Of a stretch of 64,000 nt of DNA, positions 16,845 to 45,357 are shown piece by piece. A program made the position numbers and the translations under genes. Within the stretch, counting starts at the first letter, position 1, and each line of letters begins with the position of its first letter. Source of the stretch: Candidatus Methanomethylophilaceae archaeon (GTDB taxonomy: Archaea; Thermoplasmatota; Thermoplasmata; Methanomassiliicoccales; Methanomethylophilaceae); assembly GCA_944320495.1 (NCBI GenBank), contig CALUHR010000013.1, positions 224,001 through 288,000 on the forward strand, in the 5' to 3' direction. The notes under the pieces are model-generated. The model did no database searches. It was not told the DNA's origin and worked only from the letters and a program-made list of their open reading frames with translations.

Positions 16845-17105
16845 ATGGATATTCTGGGTGTTGTCGAGGAAACGACCTGCGATGGCAGGATCATCATCCG
16901 CTGCGACGCCCTGCCAGACATCGGAGACTCGGTGTTCGCCAAGGGTGGGAGGCTGGGCACCGTCGGCAGGGTGTTCGGACCGGTCGACAGCCCATACGCA
17001 TCCGTGAACCCCGTCGGGGGCGCCACGGCCGCGAAGGGCACAAGGACGTCTTTCAAGGGGAGAAAGCACGATGCCAAAAGTAAGAGAGGAAACAGAAGAG
17101 ATCGA
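16845..17105 (+). CDS. gar1: H/ACA RNP subunit Gar1/Naf1 (ends at CGA 17103-17105)
   Basis: [18 protein letters not shown] motif and the conserved position upstream of tfb. The standard-code ORF ends at 17144. Confidence 0.85.
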
Positions 17106-18422: not shown

Positions 18423-19478
18423 TCACGGCTTGAACCAGCGGAACTCGAGGTACTCGACCCTGTTCCTCCTGACCAAACCGAAGAGGATCTCCTTCTTCAC
18501 GCCGCCCGAGAGACGCACGGTCCTGGATATCTCCGGCCACATCCTGAGGCCGTCCTCCGTCACGGCGTGCACCAGGTAGCGCGCATGGGAGTCGTCGGGG
18601 GACGTCTGGTACACCCTGAAGTGAGTGCCGTACTTGAACCCGGTCTTGACCACGAGGCCCCTCTCACGGAGGTCGGAGTAGACCAGGTACCTGATCCTGA
18701 ACTCGTCCTGGATCCTCTCGCCGAACTCCATGAGGTCGTCGAAGGTCACAGGATTGTCGTCCTGGTCCAGGACGGTGAGCCTGCCCTTTCCCATGAGGTG
18801 TACGCTCTCGATCAGCGACAGTTGCAGGGCCTCGCTCATCGACTTGCCGTAGTAGCCGTAGTCCCTGAGGGCCTCCGAATGCCCGCGGTCGAACACGAAC
18901 ACCCTGTCCCTGACCAGACGTCCGACAGGCTTGGCGGACATGGGTTCGGGATACACCCTCCCGGACGGGTCGCGGAGATCAAGGGTGTAGTAGGTCAGGT
19001 CGCCCTCCTCGTCCACGACGCCGTAGAGCAGCTTCTTCCTCCTCTCGGAGACGTCGGAGACCTGCCTGACGAGGCCGGCGATGCCGACCGCGTTCCTCTC
19101 GGACACGGCACGGACCATGAACTCCGGACGGGAGTTGCTCATCGTCTTGCCGCGGGGGAAGACGGAGATGTCGTAGTCCCCCGACTCGATCTTGACGACG
19201 AATCCGCGGTTCCTCAGGTCGCGGTAGACCATGTACTTGATGTCGAAGCCCTCGAACTCGGCCGCGGCGCGGCAGAGAAGCTCCTCGAAATGGACGGGCT
19301 CGCCCTCGGGGGTGACCACCTCGAGCCTGCGGCACTCGGTGAGGTAGACGGCCTCCACGAGGTCAAGGTCGACCCCTCCGCCACTGCGGGGGTACCCGAA
19401 ATTACCCCTGGTGTAGAGCCTGCTGCCCTCGCTCTGCTCCCTGACCTCGACACGGTCCGCAAGAAGAATGCCCGCCAT
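18423..19478 (-). CDS. endA: tRNA-splicing endonuclease (homodimeric, duplicated-domain type)
   Basis: Two repeated units; YSDLRERGLVVKTGFKYGTHFRVY...HARYLV...GVKK in the C-terminal unit. ATG 19478 (ORF track starts at 19790). Confidence 0.95.
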   Translation of the reverse strand: MAGILLADRVEVREQSEGSRLYTRGNFGYPRSGGGVDLDLVEAVYLTECRRLEVVTPEGEPVHFEELLCRAAAEFEGFDIKYMVYRDLRNRGFVVKIESGDYDISVFPRGKTMSNSRPEFMVRAVSERNAVGIAGLVRQVSDVSERRKKLLYGVVDEEGDLTYYTLDLRDPSGRVYPEPMSAKPVGRLVRDRVFVFDRGHSEALRDYGYYGKSMSEALQLSLIESVHLMGKGRLTVLDQDDNPVTFDDLMEFGERIQDEFRIRYLVYSDLRERGLVVKTGFKYGTHFRVYQTSPDDSHARYLVHAVTEDGLRMWPEISRTVRLSGGVKKEILFGLVRRNRVEYLEFRWFKP

Positions 19479-19601
19479 CGGCGGGTCCACGCCATCGCCG
19501 TATATAAGGGAAAAGGGGTCTGGGATGGAATTTAAATTACACAATGTAATTAAATAAGCCCGTGACCATGTCCCTGCGTCCGCAAGGACGGATGATGTCA
19601 T

Positions 19602-20342
19602 ATGGTGAAGCAGACCGCTGGAAGGGATTCGCTCGGGGATTTCGCACCGAAGTTCGCCGAGCTGAACGACGATGTGCTGTTCGGGGAGGTGTGGTCCAGG
19701 GAGAACGGGCTGTCGCTGCGCGACAGGTCGCTGGTGACGGTCGTATCCCTGATGTCCCAGGGACTCACGGACTCGTCGTTCAGGTACCATCTGGAATCAG
19801 CGAGGAGGAACGGGATCACCAGGACGGAGATCGCCGAGATCCTCACGCATGCGGCGTTCTACGCCGGCTGGCCGAAGGCCTGGGCCGCGTTCAACATGGC
19901 CAAGGAGGTCTGGGCCGAGGAGCCGGCGGACGATGCCAGGGCAAGGCACCAGACAGAGATGGTCTTCCCGATCGGGGAGCTCAACGATTCGTATGCGCGG
20001 TACTTCACCGGAAGGAGCTACCTGGCGCCCGTGTCCACGTCCCAGATCGGGGTGTTCAACGTGACCTTCGAGCCGGGCTGCAGGAACAACTGGCACATAC
20101 ACCACGCGGAGACCGGCGGAGGGCAGATACTCATCTGCGTCGCGGGGAGGGGGCGCTACCAGGAATGGGGCGGCGAGATCCGCGAGCTGAATCCCGGGGA
20201 CGTCGTCAACATCCCCGCCAACGTGAAGCACTGGCACGGGGCGGCGCCGGACAGCTGGTTCTCCCATCTTGCGATAGAGGTCCCCGGAACGGGGACGTCG
20301 AACGAATGGTGCGAGCCCGTGGACGACTCGCAGTACCGCCGA
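19602..20342 (+). CDS. Carboxymuconolactone-decarboxylase-like plus cupin fusion protein
   Basis: FAPKFAELNDDVLFGEVWSR (CMD) and FEPGCRNNWHIH...HWHGA (cupin). First CGA at 20340; TGA end at 20351. Confidence 0.88.
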
Positions 20343-20470
20343 CCGCGATGAACGGGCCTCAGACGATCGCCCGTGCTGGACGAAGCTCCGTTCAGACCGC
20401 TTAAATACAGAACGACAGAAGTCGGATTGGGCCGGACGAAGGAATTCTTCCGGACCCAGGGCGTGGAATC

Positions 20471-21139
20471 ATGGATGAGATCGACATGATGGAGGCGATC
20501 AGGGAGAGACACTCCGTCAGGAGGTACACGAACAGGAGGATCGAGGATCCCGAGAGGAGCCGGCTCCAGGAGGTTGTAGAAGCCTGCAACGCGCAGGGCG
20601 GCCTCAGGTTCCAGCTGTTCACCGACTCTCCGGGCGCCTTCGACGGCATCCTCTCCGGGGGGTTCAGGAACGTCGTGAACTACGTCGCCCTCGTCAAGAA
20701 GATCTCCGAGCCCGACGAGAAGGTCGGGTACTACGGAGAGGAGGTGGCACTCCGCGCACAGCAGCTGGGTCTGAGGACCTGCTGGGTCGGGCTCTCCTAC
20801 AGCAAGAGGAGGTGCAGGGCGGAGATCGCCGACGACGAGAAGCTGGTATGCTTGCTGGCCGTCGGGTACGGAGAGAACGATGGGACGGCCCACAGGAGCA
20901 GGCCCGCGGACCAGATCGGAAGATGCGAGGGGGATGCCCCGGAATGGTTCTCAAAGGGCATCGAGGCCGTGATGCTGGCGCCCTCGGCCATGAACAGGCA
21001 GAGGTTCAGATTCGTCCTCCAGGGGGACGGGCGCGTAAGAGCGGAGACCTCTGGGGGCGCCTACTCCGAGGTGGACCGGGGCATAGCGAAGCTGCACTTC
21101 GAGATCGGCGCCGGGACCGACAACTTCGAGTGGGCCCGA
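20471..21139 (+). CDS. Nitroreductase family protein (ends at CGA 21137-21139)
   Basis: AIRERHSVRRY, LAPSAMNRQ and LHFEIGAGTDNFEWA; followed by CGA CGA and a hairpin. The standard-code ORF runs to 22555, antisense to trpB2. Confidence 0.88.
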
Positions 21140-21159
21140 CGACGGGATCGGGGTTTGAA

Positions 21160-21187
21160 GGGCCCCGCCCTGAATCGGGCGGGGCCG
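21160..21187. terminator. Hairpin between the convergent nitroreductase and trpB2 genes
   Basis: GGCCCCGCCC-TGAATC-GGGCGGGGCC perfect stem. Confidence 0.55.
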
Positions 21188-21193
21188 TCTGAT

Positions 21194-22519
21194 TCAGTCG
21201 TCGATCGACGAGGACTGCATGGTGCCCTCGAGATACTGGTCGTAGCCGTAGAGGTCGAGGAACCCGTGGCCGGAGAGGCAGAACACGATGGTCTTCTCCT
21301 CGCCGGTGGCCTTGCACTCCAGGGCCTTGTCGATGGCCGCCTTGATCGCATGGCAGGACTCTGGCGCTGCCACGATGCCCTCGGTCTTCGCGAAGAGAAC
21401 GCCGGCCTCGAACGTCTCGGTCTGGTCGTACGCCACCGCCGTCAGGAGGTTCTGGTCGTACGCGGCGGACACGAGCGGGGACATGCCGTGGTATCTGAGG
21501 CCTCCGGCGTGGATACTCTTGGGGATGAACTCGGACCCGAGGGTGTACATCATCAGAAGGGGCGTGACGCCGGCGGTGTCGCCGTAGTCGTACCTGAACT
21601 CCCCCTCGGTGAGCGAGGGCGCGGCCTTGGGCTCGACGGCGATGATCTCGGTCTCGCTCCTGCCCTTGATCTTCTCGTGCATCATGGGGAAGGTGAATCC
21701 GGCGAAGTTCGAACCGCCGCCGACACAGGCGATCATGTAGTCCGGGGTAATCTCGGCCTTCTGCATCTGCAGCATGGCCTCCTCCCCGATGACGGTCTGA
21801 TGCAGCATCACATGGTTCAGGACGCTGCCGAGGGCGTAGCACGTGCCCTCGTCCTTCATTGCGAGCTCGCAGGCCTCGGAGATTGCGATGCCCAGGGACC
21901 CTGTGGTGTCCGGATGCTCCTTGAGGATCTTCTTCCCGAACTCGGTGTACTCGGACGGGGAAGCGTAGACCTCGGCACCGTACATGTGCATCAGGGTCTT
22001 CCTGAAGGGCTTCTGGTTGTAGCTGCCCTTGACCATGAACACCGTGGTGTCTATGTCGAAGAGATTGGACACCATGGCGAGGGCTGTGCCCCACTGACCG
22101 GCGCCGGTCTCGGTGGTGAGTGTGTGGATGCCCGACTCCGCGTTGTAGTACGCCTGTGCGAGGGCTGTGTTGCCCTTGTGGCTGCCCAGGGGGCTCATGT
22201 CCTCCCTCTTGAAGTAGATCTTCGCGGGGGTCTTGAGGTACCTCTCGAGGCGGTAGGCCCTCTGGAGGGGCGACGGCCTGTTGAGGGCGACAAGGTTGTC
22301 CCTGACCTCCTCGGGAATGTCGATGTACCTCTCGGTGGAGGCCTCCTGCTGGATGATGGGCTTGCAGAAGATCGCCTCGAAGTCCTGCGGCTTGGCGGGC
22401 TCCTTCGTGACGGGATTGAGCGGGGGCTTGATCTCCGGGAGGTCCGCGGCGAGGTTGTACCAGCGCTTGGGGATCTCCTCGGGATCGAGTGTGATGCGAA
22501 CGTCCTTCGGTATTGCCAT
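21194..22519 (-). CDS. trpB2: TrpB-like PLP enzyme (tryptophan synthase beta, type 2)
   Basis: GSHKGNTA (PLP Lys), TETGAGQWG, GGGSNFAG, GGLRYHG and SGHG motifs; no trpA nearby. Confidence 0.93.
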   Translation of the reverse strand: MAIPKDVRITLDPEEIPKRWYNLAADLPEIKPPLNPVTKEPAKPQDFEAIFCKPIIQQEASTERYIDIPEEVRDNLVALNRPSPLQRAYRLERYLKTPAKIYFKREDMSPLGSHKGNTALAQAYYNAESGIHTLTTETGAGQWGTALAMVSNLFDIDTTVFMVKGSYNQKPFRKTLMHMYGAEVYASPSEYTEFGKKILKEHPDTTGSLGIAISEACELAMKDEGTCYALGSVLNHVMLHQTVIGEEAMLQMQKAEITPDYMIACVGGGSNFAGFTFPMMHEKIKGRSETEIIAVEPKAAPSLTEGEFRYDYGDTAGVTPLLMMYTLGSEFIPKSIHAGGLRYHGMSPLVSAAYDQNLLTAVAYDQTETFEAGVLFAKTEGIVAAPESCHAIKAAIDKALECKATGEEKTIVFCLSGHGFLDLYGYDQYLEGTMQSSSIDD

Positions 22520-23237
22520 GAGAGGATGATGGCCATCGCTGATATTTGTATATAATGGTATGTTGGTGTATAATATTATTCAATATTTGACTTGTTAATG
22601 ATTAAATGTCTGATGACCATATACCAATGAACGTGGATGTCATGAGACCACCTTTTCGGGATGAACAATCGTAGCGTGCGCGGGCGATCGCCTCGAAGAA
22701 TGGGGACGGCAGCCGCCTGAGGATCATCCAGAGCCAATGCTCGGACGTCTCGTACGGGAATCGGCGGCGAGGCGCGAATGCGACCTCGGGGAAGGCATTC
22801 GTGGATCCGATGGGGGCGGGATCGGCATCATCCTGCAGATTCGAGGCTCCTAACGGCGCGATCCTCGTGAGGCATGTCGCAGGCCGCTGCCTCCACCTCG
22901 TCCATGGTCCTTCCCCAGCCGACCGCCTTTCCATCCCGGCGACCGGGTCGCATCCCATCCCAGCTCCGGGAATCCCACAGGCCAGGCGATGTGGCACATA
23001 GCGTACCCGTATTAAAGGCAATTCGCCTAACATGAACGAATAAAATATGTGATGTAGCTCAATATAATGGTCTGTCGGAATTGTCTGGCACTGTCCGAGA
23101 CCGAGGGATCCCTCATGGGTCAATCATCTCGCGGATGCCAGGTCGGACCCATCGGCCATCGCGGCGTTCGCGTCGCGGGCGGGCGCGCCTTTTAGATTAA
23201 ATATTTAATCAAAGCACCCATCGCACCGCCGATTAGC

Positions 23238-25391: not shown

Positions 25392-26987
25392 TCGTTCGAC
25401 CCTAGCTACAACATCGAAATCGTCACTAACGCCCAGAGCCTCGAACAGCCTTGGCACTCTCCTGTCCCGCGACCCTCTGATCAATCCATTGACCGTAATC
25501 GTCGCCTTGTATGTCGAGGCCATGAGGAACGCCCTGGAGACGTCGACATCCTTCATACCGGCGGCGTCGAGAGTCCTCTGTATCTCCGAGTAGATCGTTA
25601 TCGCGATGAACTCGATGAACAGATGCGGTTCTGTGCGGACGCCCTTGCAGATATAACGCTTCAGCTGCCTGGAGCCACCATTGAACTGGGCTATCGCCCT
25701 GGAGATCGCGGTCCTCGCCACGCGCCCGGACACCACGTCATCCCATTCAGCCGAGCGCAGGACGACAAACGTCTTCCCCGCATCGGTCCTGAACTCAGAA
25801 ATCCTGCCGCGCCTTCTGATGAGACTCATGGTCCCATCCTCATCGATGACGTAGCGTAGGAACCGCTCGAACCGCCCTGCGACCTTCTCGAAGGCCTCCG
25901 CCGGATACTCGAACACCTTCCCCTCCAGACGGAATTCTATGTCAGAGAGGGCATCCCTCAGGGCCACGACCTCCTCCGCCCTCATACGCGGGTCGTAACA
26001 GAGGAACGATATGAGGCCCATAACCGCATCCCCGAACCTGGGATCTGTCTGTGGCACCAAGATCTGCCCTCCCGTGCCCTGCAAAAGCCCGACGACCCCC
26101 TCCTGAAGATAATACTCCCTCCCGGAATGCTCCTTCCTGAAGCATGGGGATTCCACGTCCCGGTAATCGGACTGCACCGCCCGGAACTGATCGGAATCTG
26201 CGGCGTACGGTATCGCGAAGTCCACATCGCCATCTATCAAGCCCGTGAGATCCAGAGTGGGACTGATCGCCGTGTCCGCGATGAACACACAGTCCGAGGT
26301 CTTGCGAATCGACTGCATGACCTCCACCAGCTCCGACGTATCACGGGAAATGTCACCCACGGGGCTGAACGCTATAGGCATCCCGTCCTCGGTCATTATG
26401 ATCAGGATGGAGACCTCGGTCGCGGGGTCCCTCCTCTCCCGGGCCTGTATGATGTCGTCAGAATCGATCGTCTGATGCGCATATGCGTAGAGCTTCCCGG
26501 AATGCATGGACCATCTGCGTCTGAAGAATGCGAACATCCTGTCAAGGTCGATGGAATTTACAATCCCGCGCACATCCGCGCTCCCGATGCGAGCATCGAG
26601 ACCCAGCAGGTATGGGATGCACGAAGAGTTGAGCACCAGATCGATCGAATCCGATGGTGTCGGCCTGATAGCCTGCGCCAGCGCCAGGGCGAGTATCCTG
26701 TCCGCATCCTTCCCGAACACTCCCTCAAGGTCCTCGCGAATGCCCAGGCGCTCGGCCACGGTAAACGCCAGAAGGGCATCCCCATAGTTGACCATCCTGG
26801 CCCCGTCCGGGGGCAGCTCGCGTGGAGGTACACGGGCGACCTTCTCATGTATCTCCCCCGTCTCCGGATCGACCACGCCCAGATACCGCTTGACCGAGAC
26901 GGGGTTCTTCCTCCCCGGCACGCGTTTGGACGTGGACGTGTATGCGTATGTCTTGCCGTTGCGGTTCTCGTACCTTATGGACGACAT
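25392..26987 (-). mobile_element. IS1634-like (IS4 superfamily) transposase homologue with a degenerate DDE motif (ends at CGA 25394-25392)
   Basis: N-terminus YAYTSTSKRVPGRKNP...YLGVVDPETG, central FIADT, and C-terminal HLFIEFIA. No terminal inverted repeats seen. The standard-code ORF runs to 24987, into pdaD. Start ATG 26987 or 26996. Confidence 0.65.
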
Positions 26988-27015
26988 GGCGACCATCCAT
27001 CCTCGGTCTGTGCGA

Positions 27016-29129: not shown

Positions 29130-31804
<2,675 letters not shown>

Positions 31805-33408: not shown

Positions 33409-34016
33409 TCCACGTCGCCGTTGGCGAGTGCGAGGTGGACATCCTGCCGGTGGTCAACGGCATCGTGTCGGAGTGCGACAGGGTGCGTGAGGCCTACGGC
33501 GGATACGAGTCGTACGCCGCATCCATGGGCATCGAGGGCATCCAGGCGATAAGGGCCAGACTCACCCTGGACGGGGACGCCGAGGTCAGCGAGCTGGACA
33601 TCGCGTACGCCCGCAGGATGATGGCCCTCACCGGCGAGGAGGTGCAGATGCCCTCTCCCGCCATGTGCACCCTTGTGGACCTTGTGACCGCCGACGGCGG
33701 CAGCGTCATCGCCCTGGACATGAACGACGAGGAGTTCACCGAGATGTACTGCGAAACTGTGCCAGCCTTCGATTTCGTGAAGGAGCACCGCCTGGCCAAG
33801 AAGGGGCTGAAGAAGCGCTTCTCGTCCGAGACCCCCGAAGGGTTCGCCCTCGAGTGGGACGCGTACGTGAACACCGTCAAGAGCTACCGCCAGGTCTCCC
33901 TGAACCGCGAGAGGCACATGGCGGACGAGATCAGGGACATAGCCAGATACCGCCGCAGCCTCCTCGCCGTCATCGAGGTCGAGCGCGCCGAGGGCGTCGC
34001 ATCACTGCTGAGGCGA
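33405..34016 (+). CDS. Conserved hypothetical protein (203 aa; ends at CGA 34014-34016)
   Basis: Coding-biased frame with an ATGA overlap with the upstream gene. The standard-code ORF runs a further 1 kb over the next gene, to 35078. Confidence 0.7.
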
Positions 34017-40880: not shown

Positions 40881-42260
40881 TCACTTCTTCGGCAGGTACT
40901 TCTCGATGTACTTGCGGTCGATCCTGGTCAGCTGGTCGAGGTCGAGCTCGGTGAAGATCTCCCATCCGATATCGAGGGTCTCCTCGATCGAACGGTCCTC
41001 GTCGATGCCCTGGCGGACGATGCGGTCCTCGAAGATGTCGGCGAAGTCCAGGAGCTTCCTGTCCTTGGCGGAGAGGGAGTCCTTTCCGACGATGGCCACG
41101 AGTCCGCGGAGGTCCTTACCCTCGGCGTAGGACGCATAGAGCTGGTCGGAGACCGCCTTGTGGTCCTCACGGGTCTTGCCCTTTCCGGTTCCGCCTCCCA
41201 TCAGCCTGGACAGGGACGAGGAGACGTTGACCGGCGGGTAGATACCGTTCCTGTGGAGCTCCATCGACAGAACGATCTGACCCTCGGTGATGTAACCGGA
41301 GAGGTCGGGGATCGGGTGGGTGATGTCTCCGCCGGGCATGGTCAGGATGGGGATCTGGGTGATGGAACCCTTCTTGCCCTTGATCCTTCCCGCACGCTCG
41401 TACAGCTGGGCGAGGTCGGTGTACATGTAACCGGGGTAACCGCGCCTTCCGGGCACCTCCTCACGGGCCGCTCCGATCTGACGGAGGGCCTCGCAGTAGT
41501 TGGTGATGTCGGTCATGATGACCAGCACCTGCATGCCCAGGTCGAACGCCATGTACTCCGCGGTGGTGAGACCGAGACGCGGGGTGAGGGTACGCTCGAC
41601 GGCGGGGTCGTCGGCGAGGTTCAGGAAGACGACGGCGTTCTTCAGAGCGCCGGTCCTCTCGAACTCCTTCATGAACATCTGCTTCTCTTCGTTGGTGATA
41701 CCCATGGCGATGAACACCACAGCGAACTCCTCGTTCTCGCCGCGGACCTTGGCCTGCCTGGCGATCTGAAGGGCCATCTCGTTGTGGGGGAGACCGGACT
41801 GCGAGAAGATCGGCAGCTTCTGTCCCCTGACGAGGGTGTTCATTCCGTCGATGGTCGAGATTCCCGTCTGGATGAAATCGGACGGGCTGTCCCTGGCCCA
41901 CGGGTTGATGGCGGCTCCGGTGATGTCGACCTCCTTCTCGGGGACGATCCTGGCTCCGCCGTCGAGGGGCTCTCCGGCTCCGGAGAGAACCCTTCCGAGC
42001 ATGTCCTTGGAGACGGGCATCTTCATGGTCTCGCCGAGGAAGCGAACGGACGCATCCCTGTCGACACCGGAGGTGCCCTCGAAGACCTGGACGACGACGA
42101 TGTCGTTGGACGAGTCGAGGACCTGTCCCCTCCTCATGGTACCGTCGGACATCCTGATGTTGACCATCTCGTAGTAACCGACGGGCTCGGTGTTCTTGAC
42201 GTACACCAGAGGTCCGGCGATCTGGGAGATCGTCTTGTACTCTTTGGATACTTCTGCCAT
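40881..42260 (-). CDS. atpB: A1Ao ATP synthase subunit B
   Basis: [19 protein letters not shown] and [14 protein letters not shown] motifs. Confidence 0.98.
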
Positions 42261-43996: not shown

Positions 43997-44302
43997 TTAT
44001 TCATCCTCTGATTTGTATAAGTCAACTCCAATCGCTCTCTTCACCTTCTCACGGAGATCGCTCTGATCCCCTCCGACCGGCACGACGACGGGCTGGATCG
44101 AATCCATGACCCTGTGCCTGACGGCGAAAGAGAGGTTGTCCAGATCCTTCGCGTCCACTGCGAGGATACCGATGTTGGGCTGGGACATCGCCTCCAGCAT
44201 TTTTTCCTGGTAGTTGTCTTTCTCAGCAACGAAGACGCGCCTGATACCGGCGAGCCTGAAGCCGAGCACGAACTCATCGCTGCCTATTACTGCGATCTCC
44301 AT
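43997..44302 (-). CDS. atpF: A1Ao ATP synthase subunit F
   Basis: IAVIGSDEFVLGFRLAG and LREKVKRAIGVDL motifs. Confidence 0.95.
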   Translation of the reverse strand: MEIAVIGSDEFVLGFRLAGIRRVFVAEKDNYQEKMLEAMSQPNIGILAVDAKDLDNLSFAVRHRVMDSIQPVVVPVGGDQSDLREKVKRAIGVDLYKSEDE

Positions 44303-45357
44303 CGGATCACCAGCAACCCTTTGATGGTGTCTGCGTCCAGTCCGCTCTCCACTCCCCTCGAGATGGTCCTGATGTTGCTGACCTCGATCTCCTTGTGGAT
44401 CATGTAGTCGATGATGGGGACCACCGACAGGGGGTACATGTGGGAGAACTTGTTCGCGGCGGCGATCTCGTACTTCTTCATCTCGGTGACGACCTCCCTG
44501 ATGCTCACCTTGTCGGATTCCACGAGTCCCTTGATGGAGTCGTAGAATTCGAGGCGGGACAGGTCGGAGGACGCGGCGGCGATGGTCTCCGCGTTGGCGA
44601 GCTGAGTCGCGTAGCGGGTGTCGATCTGCCTTCCCCCGGGGATGATGTACTTCATCACGACCTCGCCGTGGATCCCCTCCGCCTTGAGCTTGAGGATCGT
44701 CTCGAGGTTCTTGATGTCGATCTCCGTCCTGACGTAGTCCTGGAACATCCTGGTCGGCCTGGAGGTGGGGTTGATGCTCTTGACCAGCCTCACGTAGTGG
44801 GCCTTGTCCAGGTAGTCCTCGATCTCTCCCAGGTTCCCGGTCGACTTGTAGGTCGAGATGACGTCCTGGGGGATCGTGATGTGTTCCATCTTGTCGTAGT
44901 TCGCGATTATGTCTTCCACACTGTCGAGCGAGAGCAGCTTCTCCAGAGACTCGGAGTCCAGACTTCCGGCGGGGACCAGGTCCTCCCTGATTCCCTCGGG
45001 GTCAAGTCCGTACGACTTGCCGCGCAGGATGACCTTCAGGTTCCAGATGTCCCACTTCTCGAGGTACGCCTGGACCATGCCCTTGAGCTCTCCCTGGGAG
45101 GCCTGCAGGATGCTGCTGAACACCTTCGCCATGTTGGTGTAGGTGGCGTGCTCCACGAGGTCCATCCCCTCCAGCCTGCCGGCGAGGTCGGTCATCTCCT
45201 TCTGATAACCGGACTCGCTGATGTAGCGGGAGATCTCCGGGACGCTCATGAGCAGCATCTTGTTGTAGTCCTCGTCCTTGAGGAGAAGGGCCTTCTTGGC
45301 CTTCACCCTGGACACGGCATACGCGTAGTTGCCTGCCCTTCCGCTGCGGTTGAACAT
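44302..45357 (-). CDS. atpC: A1Ao ATP synthase subunit C (ends at CGA 44304-44302, overlapping the atpF ATG)
   Basis: YAYAVSRVKAKK, WDIWNLKVILR and EVSNIR...LLVI. The standard-code ORF ends at 44287. Confidence 0.93.

Follow-up and report, generated by a model that had tools for sequence, protein, structure and literature searches.

The stretch of DNA analysed here, referred to as the window, comprises 64,000 nucleotides (G000:C13:224001-288000) of the genome of a Candidatus Methanomethylophilaceae archaeon. The source genome, G000, is a 1.77-Mb assembly of 14 contigs with 61.5% GC. Its closest AtpB matches in the database bear names of the Methanomethylophilaceae, order Methanomassiliicoccales (93% identity to one protein so named). 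The gene in question codes for a nitroreductase of the TM1586 type and faces a convergent trpB2 gene, coding for a TrpB-like pyridoxal phosphate (PLP) enzyme, across an intergenic region that carries a hairpin (Table 1). It probably terminates at a CGA codon instead of a standard stop. Positions 21125-21145 read TTC GAG TGG GCC CGA CGA CGG in frame with the ATG at 20471 and, as the first-pass annotation of this DNA had reported, no TAA, TAG or TGA follows in this frame before 22555. Under translation table 11 the open reading frame (ORF) is 20471..22555 (694 aa), which therefore leaves 471 codons without a standard stop after the first CGA, and the read-through part lies antisense to trpB2. 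A frame that stays open for so long is unremarkable in itself, given that a GC-rich gene lies antisense to it. It is the coincidence of the homologous C-terminus with the CGA, and not the length of the open frame, that exceeds chance.

The nitroreductase is a full-length member of the TM1586-type family. It matches PF14512 (TM1586_NiRdase) with 224.7 bits, above the curated cut-off of 27, and residues 5-214 correspond to positions 1-215 of the 215 of the profile. At E <= 0.001 the database holds 6,748 relatives, the best 120 of which are nearly all 217-229 aa long. The four closest homologues among the matches listed share 82-88% identity and have 221-222 aa. When 22 homologues were aligned, 17 stop exactly at the ...W-A column, three bacterial sequences continue for 1-3 residues beyond it, and two (P0014 and P0015, from metagenomes, 57% identity) carry C-terminal tails of 40-45 residues. 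Homologues typically measure 219-226 aa and close with ...FxWA, which is where the nitroreductase stops as well (...NFEWA). The tail of P0014 or P0015 in one case begins ...QWA-R and may correspond to a CGA read-through in another organism. A search of genome contigs with the nitroreductase returned only 7 bacterial loci (34-46% identity), which are uninformative on the stop.

Orthologues are present in 17 of 24 same-genus genomes. Those of G018, G004, G010 and G009 end ...WA TGA at the position where G000 has CGA. The gene order is CMD/cupin - nitroreductase - trpB2 in G018 and endA - nitroreductase - trpB2 in G004. Since this neighbourhood is shared, the nitroreductase is a resident gene and no recent arrival, and the earlier view that it was probably acquired and then adapted to the code of its host finds no support. 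G018 also shares the CGA habit and an identical release factor aRF1 (100%), so that the difference is a T/C change at the stop of a resident gene. The nitroreductases of G000 and G018 are 81.5% identical, while their flanks reach 93.5% (CMD/cupin) and 99.2% (trpB2), which suggests allele replacement by recombination.

The stretch is found in public sequencing runs from 9 studies, mostly chicken-gut metagenomes. A DNA contig of run X1 (chicken gut) covers 20429-21299 with 0 differences; X1 may be the source sample. A contig of run X2, from a second study and a diverged strain, spans the site with 57 differences over 19185-21302, the base at 21137 not being read. The X2 strain also lacks 28 nt from 20349 (region 20343-20376), just behind the terminators of the upstream CMD/cupin gene, which ends with a CGA (20340) and a TGA (20349).

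The distribution of CGA over G000 is that of a terminator. Counted by decile of stop-to-stop ORFs, it occurs 741, 379, 95, 32, 8, 8, 19, 35, 87 and 301 times, and this combination of an empty middle and a full 3' end is unique to CGA among rare codons. If only the middle 40% of ORFs with 200 aa or more is considered, it accounts for 67 of 168,573 codons (0.40 per 1000); as a trinucleotide its frequency in the genome is 27.6 per 1000. CGG is retained inside genes (1.8 per 1000), and both tRNA(CCG) and tRNA(UCG) are present. When a CGA first appears in the latter half of an ORF, the mean coding score is +0.27 ahead of it and -0.62 behind it, with negative values in 91% of 168 ORFs. None of 13 control codons is followed by such a collapse, the score behind them remaining positive or near zero. 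CGA is thus nearly absent from conserved sense positions, the pattern by which a sense-to-stop change is recognized.

Genes were called with a home-made codon log-odds model trained on long ORFs, overlapping ORFs being resolved. With CGA as a fourth stop, 1642 genes are obtained that end in TGA (1171), CGA (401), TAA (52) or TAG (18), and the coding fraction is 0.85 vs 0.80 when CGA is not a stop. Under the standard code with trimmed starts, 436 in-frame CGAs occur, 7 of which have coding potential on both sides. Three of these 7 separate two adjacent same-frame genes, leaving 4 plausible internal uses genome-wide. The low-scoring classes, in which CGA ends are commonest, will contain false ORFs, so that 401 has to be seen as an upper limit and 168 as a cautious count. 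CGA would end roughly 14-24% of the genes of G000. In absolute terms, about 170-400 of ~1,640 are concerned. TGA and CGA together close 96% of the 1642 called genes. Pyrrolysine use is known for this order, and the rarity of TAG ends would fit it.

In the window, 15 of the 68 called genes end in CGA. All 15 read-through translations were scanned against NCBIfam and Pfam (matches at E <= 1e-5). Family matches are found in 12, and their profiles end at the CGA with an overrun of at most 3 residues, this maximum belonging to a weak Gar1-like match (34.7 bits vs a cut-off of 132). No family match lies inside any of the 15 tails behind the CGA; three genes have no match. The next standard stop is 195 codons past the CGA in purE, where the next gene overlaps, 113 codons past it in priS and 70 in the CbiR-like gene. 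In the subunit C gene of the A-type ATP synthase (AhaC), the last base of the CGA is also the first base of the start codon that follows (CGATG). Behind the 203-aa gene, the next gene follows 5 nt past the CGA and the next standard stop 353 codons on. An IS1634-family transposase-like gene (25392-26996, minus strand; 50 bits, below the cut-off) also has a CGA end, with 134 open codons behind it.

Table 1. Features of the nitroreductase locus, gene ends at CGA in the window and in-frame CGAs elsewhere in the source genome
Feature	Coordinates	Strand	Basis
Nitroreductase CDS, TM1586/PF14512 type, 222 aa	20471..21136	+	Pfam profile; lengths and ends of homologues
First CGA, inferred termination codon of nitroreductase	21137..21139	+	TGA position of orthologues; genome-wide behaviour of CGA
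Second in-frame CGA, possible back-up terminator	21140..21142	+	Back-up enrichment statistics; immediate tandems rare
Perfect 10-bp GC-rich hairpin, 6-nt loop, between convergent nitroreductase and trpB2	21161..21186	.	Folding
TrpB-like PLP enzyme (trpB2), convergent, ends TGA	21194..22519	-	NF009057 689 bits; TIGR01415 628 bits
CGA ending purE, 159 aa	15652..15654	-	TIGR01162, residues 4-153 = profile 1-155/156; tail empty
CGA ending 203-aa gene, no known family	34014..34016	+	Gene call and coding-potential model only
CGA ending CbiR-like TIM-barrel protein, 252 aa	35028..35030	-	NF041277, residues 43-248 = profile 49-248/249
CGA ending A-type ATP synthase subunit C (AhaC), 351 aa	44302..44304	-	NF002268, residues 3-351 = profile 3-346/346
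CGA ending M20 metallo-hydrolase, 415 aa	56098..56100	+	NF010589, residues 10-407 = profile 3-406/409
CGA ending DNA primase small subunit (priS), 411 aa	58071..58073	-	NF001639, residues 11-397 = profile 9-387/391
aRF1 gene with single in-frame CGA at Arg78 (outside window)	G000:C2:85936-87165	-	Sequence comparison
CGA exactly between GmhA and GmhB domains, residue 186 (outside window)	G000:C13:193621-194700	-	Comparison with relatives

The CGA ends were compared with those of orthologues, using tblastn matches that reach the C-terminus in stretches of 128-200 kb from five genomes of the same genus. Of 101 comparisons, 40 show TGA opposite the CGA end of G000, 22 show CGA and one shows TAA; the remaining 38 show other codons, only 2 of which encode arginine. 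CGA therefore appears to coincide with the C-termini of homologues and with the standard stops of orthologues. The genome-wide, profile and orthologue evidence together supports the proposal of the first-pass annotation that the host uses CGA as a gene terminator and that the nitroreductase ends at one.

Database annotation illustrates the consequence. The AhaC of this lineage is recorded there as a 356-aa protein read through the CGA; 11 contigs carry it in identical form, and 12 other listed cluster members also have 356 aa. An exact look-up of 7 read-through products of the window and of the 222-aa nitroreductase found none of them in the collection, which returned AhaC with its 5-residue tail; the absence of these 8 proteins is uninformative because gene callers may choose other starts. 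Four relatives of AtpB (P0134, P0135, P0141 and P0219; window 40884-42260; 77-95% identity) are 588-704 aa long instead of 459. One of these long relatives carries an ATP-synt_D Pfam domain, and they may be run-on gene calls. The junction in P0141 shows no Arg at the join.

The phenomenon appears to extend to much of the genus, in very different proportions. CGA in the central part of genes amounts to 0.0-0.56 per 1000 in eight sampled genomes of the genus. In the outgroup G031 it reaches 2.14 per 1000 and coding does not collapse behind it. The share of genes ending in CGA is low in G008 (1%, 1/105) and G015 (1%, 2/173) and higher in G004 (6%), G013 (8%), G018 (14%), G000 (24%), G001 (25%, 22/89) and G010 (34%, 50/148). 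Genomes of 53-57% GC in this sample have a share of 1% and those of 60-62% GC one of 24-34%, with exceptions. The form of tRNA(UCG) tracks these shares, being long in the two low species and short in the six higher ones, which phylogenetically represents one contrast and not eight. The short form, present in 12 of 25 genus genomes, measures 73-75 nt and has a short D-loop and a 31:39 mismatch that leaves a 4-bp anticodon stem, the other four pairs of which are kept by compensatory changes. The long form of five other genomes (75-77 nt) has a CCUCGAC loop (C33) and a 27:43 mismatch.

G000 has one aRF1 (TIGR03676, 544 bits, full length) and one pelota-like gene. Residue 78 of aRF1, which is encoded by CGA in G000, is conserved as Arg across the order (27 of 28 sequences in the alignment). 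All 21 full-length aRF1 genes of the genus contain exactly one CGA, which in 20 lies at Arg78/81. In the remaining one (G005), position 78 is AAG (Lys) and the single CGA has moved to Arg25. The context of the CGA is GCN/TCT CGA CTN AAR, and neighbouring synonymous sites vary. Seven outgroup aRF1 genes have 2-4 scattered CGAs and encode the conserved Arg by CGC, CGT, CGG or AGA. This conservation points to selection on the codon itself. An early, conserved in-frame CGA is also the sequence feature of an autoregulation like that of bacterial prfB, suggesting that aRF1 may terminate its own synthesis in a feedback loop on the level of the release factor.

The NIKS and YxCxxxF motifs of aRF1 are intact, with YRCDS in all aRF1 sequences compared here. 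Candidate changes are T/Q in CDSxFF, found in the clade with the short tRNA, vs D/E in the other clade and most outgroups, and a G29S substitution in GRGTELIS restricted to G000 and G018. Both may serve as leads but not as explanations. In yeast, eRF1 competes with tRNA-Arg for CGA and detectably takes it for a stop, even when a single CGA stands at a gene end, and the L123F/R/Y substitutions, at the x of YxCxxxF, raise this stop reading (PMC7379694). The R at the x of YxC in aRF1, equivalent by motif and not by structure, is also present in outgroups that read CGA as sense.

A few sense uses of CGA appear to be retained. Besides that of aRF1, a CGA stands exactly between the GmhA and GmhB domains of one ORF, with no start codon behind it. 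CGA occupies the junction in 10 genus genomes and lies one codon earlier in G011. Elsewhere the junction codon is AGA (2 genomes), AAG (1) or TAG (G017), and three outgroups, in which the ORF is fused, have AAA. The junction CGA could mediate a programmed read-through giving a short and a fused enzyme. A flavodoxin gene (G000:C8:55330-55840, plus strand) has a CGA at residue 119, within its NF005389 match (26-152), which represents either a sense use or a truncated gene. No orthologue of this flavodoxin was found in the stretches of relatives that were compared.

The surroundings of CGA ends suggest that termination is not complete. A second in-frame terminator within 6 codons follows 160 of 354 CGA ends (45%) vs 286 of 1071 TGA ends (27%; Fisher p = 2.5e-10), and in the other two frames following terminators do not differ between CGA and TGA ends (18-23%). 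Both types of in-frame back-up contribute, CGA (26% vs 13%) and standard stops (23% vs 16%). However, an immediate CGA-CGA, as in the nitroreductase, occurs at 8 of 354 CGA ends, which is no more than the 2.8% background. The idea of a tandem CGA fail-safe thus stands for in-frame back-ups in general but not for the immediate tandem. The share of CGA ends also depends on codon adaptation, rising from 6% in the most adapted fifth of genes to 38% in the least adapted, a figure that false ORFs may inflate.

CGA ends also take part in the compact organization of genes. A one-base overlap with the next same-strand gene (CGATG) is observed at 33 of 204 CGA ends vs 17 of 771 TGA ends, while TGA ends use ATGA overlaps (207/771), which CGA is unable to form. 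U is found at +4 after 55% of CGA ends vs 29% of TGA ends, and CGATG overlaps explain part of this difference. The hexamer CGATCG occurs at 53 of 354 CGA ends, ~5x expectation and beyond the CGATG effect. Examples of these contexts in the window are found at 44300-44304 and 29637-29644.

The hairpin between nitroreductase and trpB2 was described by the first-pass annotation as a perfect 10-bp stem about 20 nt downstream of the gene. The stem was verified, and it begins 19 nt past the second CGA. Its arms, GGCCCCGCCC (21161-21170) and GGGCGGGGCC (21177-21186), enclose the loop TGAATC. The folding energy of 21137-21200 is -38.1 kcal/mol, a stability reached by 0 of 200 shuffles (z = -4.06). No T-run directly follows the stem, the next letters being GTCTGATTCAGTC, and a terminator scan of 20300-22700 returned 0 sites. 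The hairpin therefore has the GC-rich stem of an intrinsic (bacterial-type) terminator and lacks its U/T-run. It is a real RNA structure common to the two convergent genes, with a putative role as terminator. Non-stop mRNAs ending at hairpins were considered as a general mechanism for CGA ends and rejected, as many CGA ends lie inside operons where the next gene overlaps or abuts.

Taken together, these observations make it likely that CGA serves as a terminator beside TGA, TAA and TAG, that the nitroreductase ends at 21137 and that this stop is leaky and read by aRF1. Several independent kinds of sequence evidence agree on where coding ends, whereas how it ends is what we infer. CGA has been purged from gene interiors, and at gene ends a single T/C change makes it interchangeable with TGA. 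The single aRF1 may also accept CGA, which differs from UGA in having C as its first base, in competition with a retained, atypical tRNA-Arg(UCG), and this would produce a somewhat leaky stop. A leaky CGA would in turn account for the in-frame back-ups (here the second CGA), for its avoidance in codon-optimised genes and for the small number of conserved Arg CGAs. The clearest CGA read as Arg would be the early one of each aRF1 gene of the genus, providing a feedback on the level of the release factor. A broader version, which might equally well prove right or wrong, is a genus-wide code in which CGA is stop by default and Arg by exception. In this code aRF1 would read both CGA and UGA, a remodelled tRNA-Arg(UCG) would allow a limited read-through that sets the aRF1 feedback and the ratio of short to fused GmhA-GmhB, and the range from 1% to 34% of CGA ends would represent stages of the reassignment.

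Several points weigh against the reading of CGA as a terminator. A terminator stands opposite 63 of 101 CGA ends (62%) vs 335 of 423 TGA-ended controls (79%), so that either some CGA calls are wrong or the ends of these genes are less conserved. The NIKS and YxCxxxF motifs of aRF1 are the same in G008 and G015, relatives with almost no CGA ends, and no release-factor change is therefore tied to the trait. G000 possesses a tRNA with anticodon UCG (G000:C13:413317-413390, plus strand, outside the window; 74 nt), and CGA is thus not simply unassigned. Arg78 of aRF1 and residue 119 of the flavodoxin require CGA as an amino acid, so that it is not only a stop. The genes were called by a home-made procedure, with a count of CGA ends ranging from 168 (conservative) to 401 (upper), and the assembly has a completeness of 90.6% and a contamination of 1.8%. 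Finally, every statement made here derives from DNA.

CGA could instead be a hungry, unassigned codon at which ribosomes stall and a rescue route releases the peptide, in which case the protein would end there without a true stop codon. This would agree with the atypical tRNA(UCG), which has either a 4-bp anticodon stem or C33 and the 27:43 mismatch depending on the clade, with the lack of a clear aRF1 change accompanying the trait and with the scarcity of CGA ends in highly codon-adapted genes; the yeast study also frames release at CGA as rescue of stalled ribosomes (PMC7379694). However, CGA participates in ordinary stop-start overlaps (CGATG, 33/204), closes essential genes such as those of priS and ATP synthase subunit C, and is enriched as an in-frame back-up (26% vs 13%), all of which fits a routine terminator, and a hungry codon is unlikely. 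Moreover, pelota-type rescue does not hydrolyse peptidyl-tRNA, a further point against it. A site-specific C-to-U editing of the kind found in plant organelles would restore UGA in the mRNA. A C/T exchange is indeed all that separates CGA from TGA, the two replace each other at the stops of orthologues, and the distinct context behind CGA (U at +4, 55% vs 29%) is a possible recognition motif, although CGATG start overlaps explain part of the +4/+5 signal. The conserved in-frame CGAs of aRF1 and of the GmhA-GmhB junction would have to escape such editing. Two metatranscriptome contigs over the CGA ends at 17103 and 29637 show 0 differences from the DNA, a weak argument given that they are contigs, that DNA carry-over is possible and that these are the two least certain CGA ends. 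To our knowledge C-to-U editing of archaeal mRNA has not been reported, and we consider this explanation improbable.

The end of the nitroreductase might also be nothing special, that is, a lost stop or a decaying gene, a read-through into the antisense of trpB2, or an assembly or sequencing error for TGA. The closest orthologues do carry TGA at the site. However, 170-400 genes show the same pattern, essential ones included, and it recurs in the separately assembled G018 (14%), G001 (25%) and G010 (34%). The back-ups and overlaps are frame-specific signatures of selection, the public DNA contig is identical over 20429-21299, and the read-through AhaC is identical on 11 contigs with the same length in other cluster members. 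This makes such an accident highly improbable. A frameshift at CGA onto a standard stop was tried as well and rejected: stops in the +1/+2 frames within 6 codons follow 7%/12% of CGA ends vs 9%/11% of TGA ends.

A full-text search of the literature outside subscription journals and supplements found no publication that describes CGA as a stop for this group. Should CGA indeed be a terminator in these archaea, theirs would be the first sense-to-stop change documented outside organelles, in the genome of a cell, and the intermediate stages across sister species would make the route of the change testable. The table-11 annotation of these gut methanogen relatives would be wrong for up to a quarter of the genes, resulting in run-on proteins such as the 356-aa AhaC, in neighbours that are fused, in overlaps that do not exist and in downstream genes that are missed. 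Tools for codon inference whose alignments cover sense codons only would leave CGA uninferred and miss the phenomenon. The order supplies pyrrolysine systems for code engineering, and a natural pair of release factor and tRNA competing on CGA would be of interest in this field.

Sense codons have become stops in organelles: UCA in Scenedesmus mitochondria, UUA in Thraustochytrium mitochondria and AGA/AGG in vertebrate mitochondria. As in these cases, an amino-acid codon has disappeared from gene interiors and is present at gene ends. However, the organelle genomes are tiny, with a few dozen genes, while the change proposed here would concern a 1.8-Mb cellular genome and a multi-species genus, with the cognate tRNA retained and a few sense uses conserved. 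Ambiguous stop/sense codes are known in Blastocrithidia and ciliates, where a tRNA with a 4-bp anticodon stem is combined with an altered eRF1. The likeness lies in one codon with two outcomes, for which a release factor competes with a tRNA whose anticodon stem is shortened. There, however, a stop gained a sense meaning, whereas here a sense codon would have come to mean stop, and the tRNA with the short stem is cognate to this codon. Bacterial RF2 (prfB) is autoregulated through an in-frame UGA that is bypassed by a +1 frameshift. The aRF1 genes share with prfB an early in-frame codon on which the encoded factor would terminate, and high levels of this factor would cut its own synthesis. The bypass would differ, since in the loop suggested by codon conservation tRNA-Arg(UCG) would simply read through the CGA of a conserved Arg.

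Two unrelated archaeal assemblies from hydrothermal vents have been described in which CGG is reassigned to Trp and CGA "may be a stop" (10.64898/2026.04.02.715157). They share with G000 the absence of CGA from recognisable domains and its suspicion as a stop. Stops could not be tested in that work, and the marine genomes have ~50% GC, no tRNA(UCG) found and a reassigned CGG (10.64898/2026.04.02.715157), whereas the present genome is from the gut, has 61.5% GC and both tRNAs, and its use of CGA as a stop is supported by homologue ends and orthologous TGA codons. Yeast eRF1/eRF3 offers a biochemical parallel, in that a factor of the aRF1/eRF1 family opposes tRNA-Arg on CGA and releases the peptide (PMC7379694). 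In yeast it is a minor side reaction seen with reporters (PMC7379694), whereas in the present genome hundreds of genes would normally end in this way.

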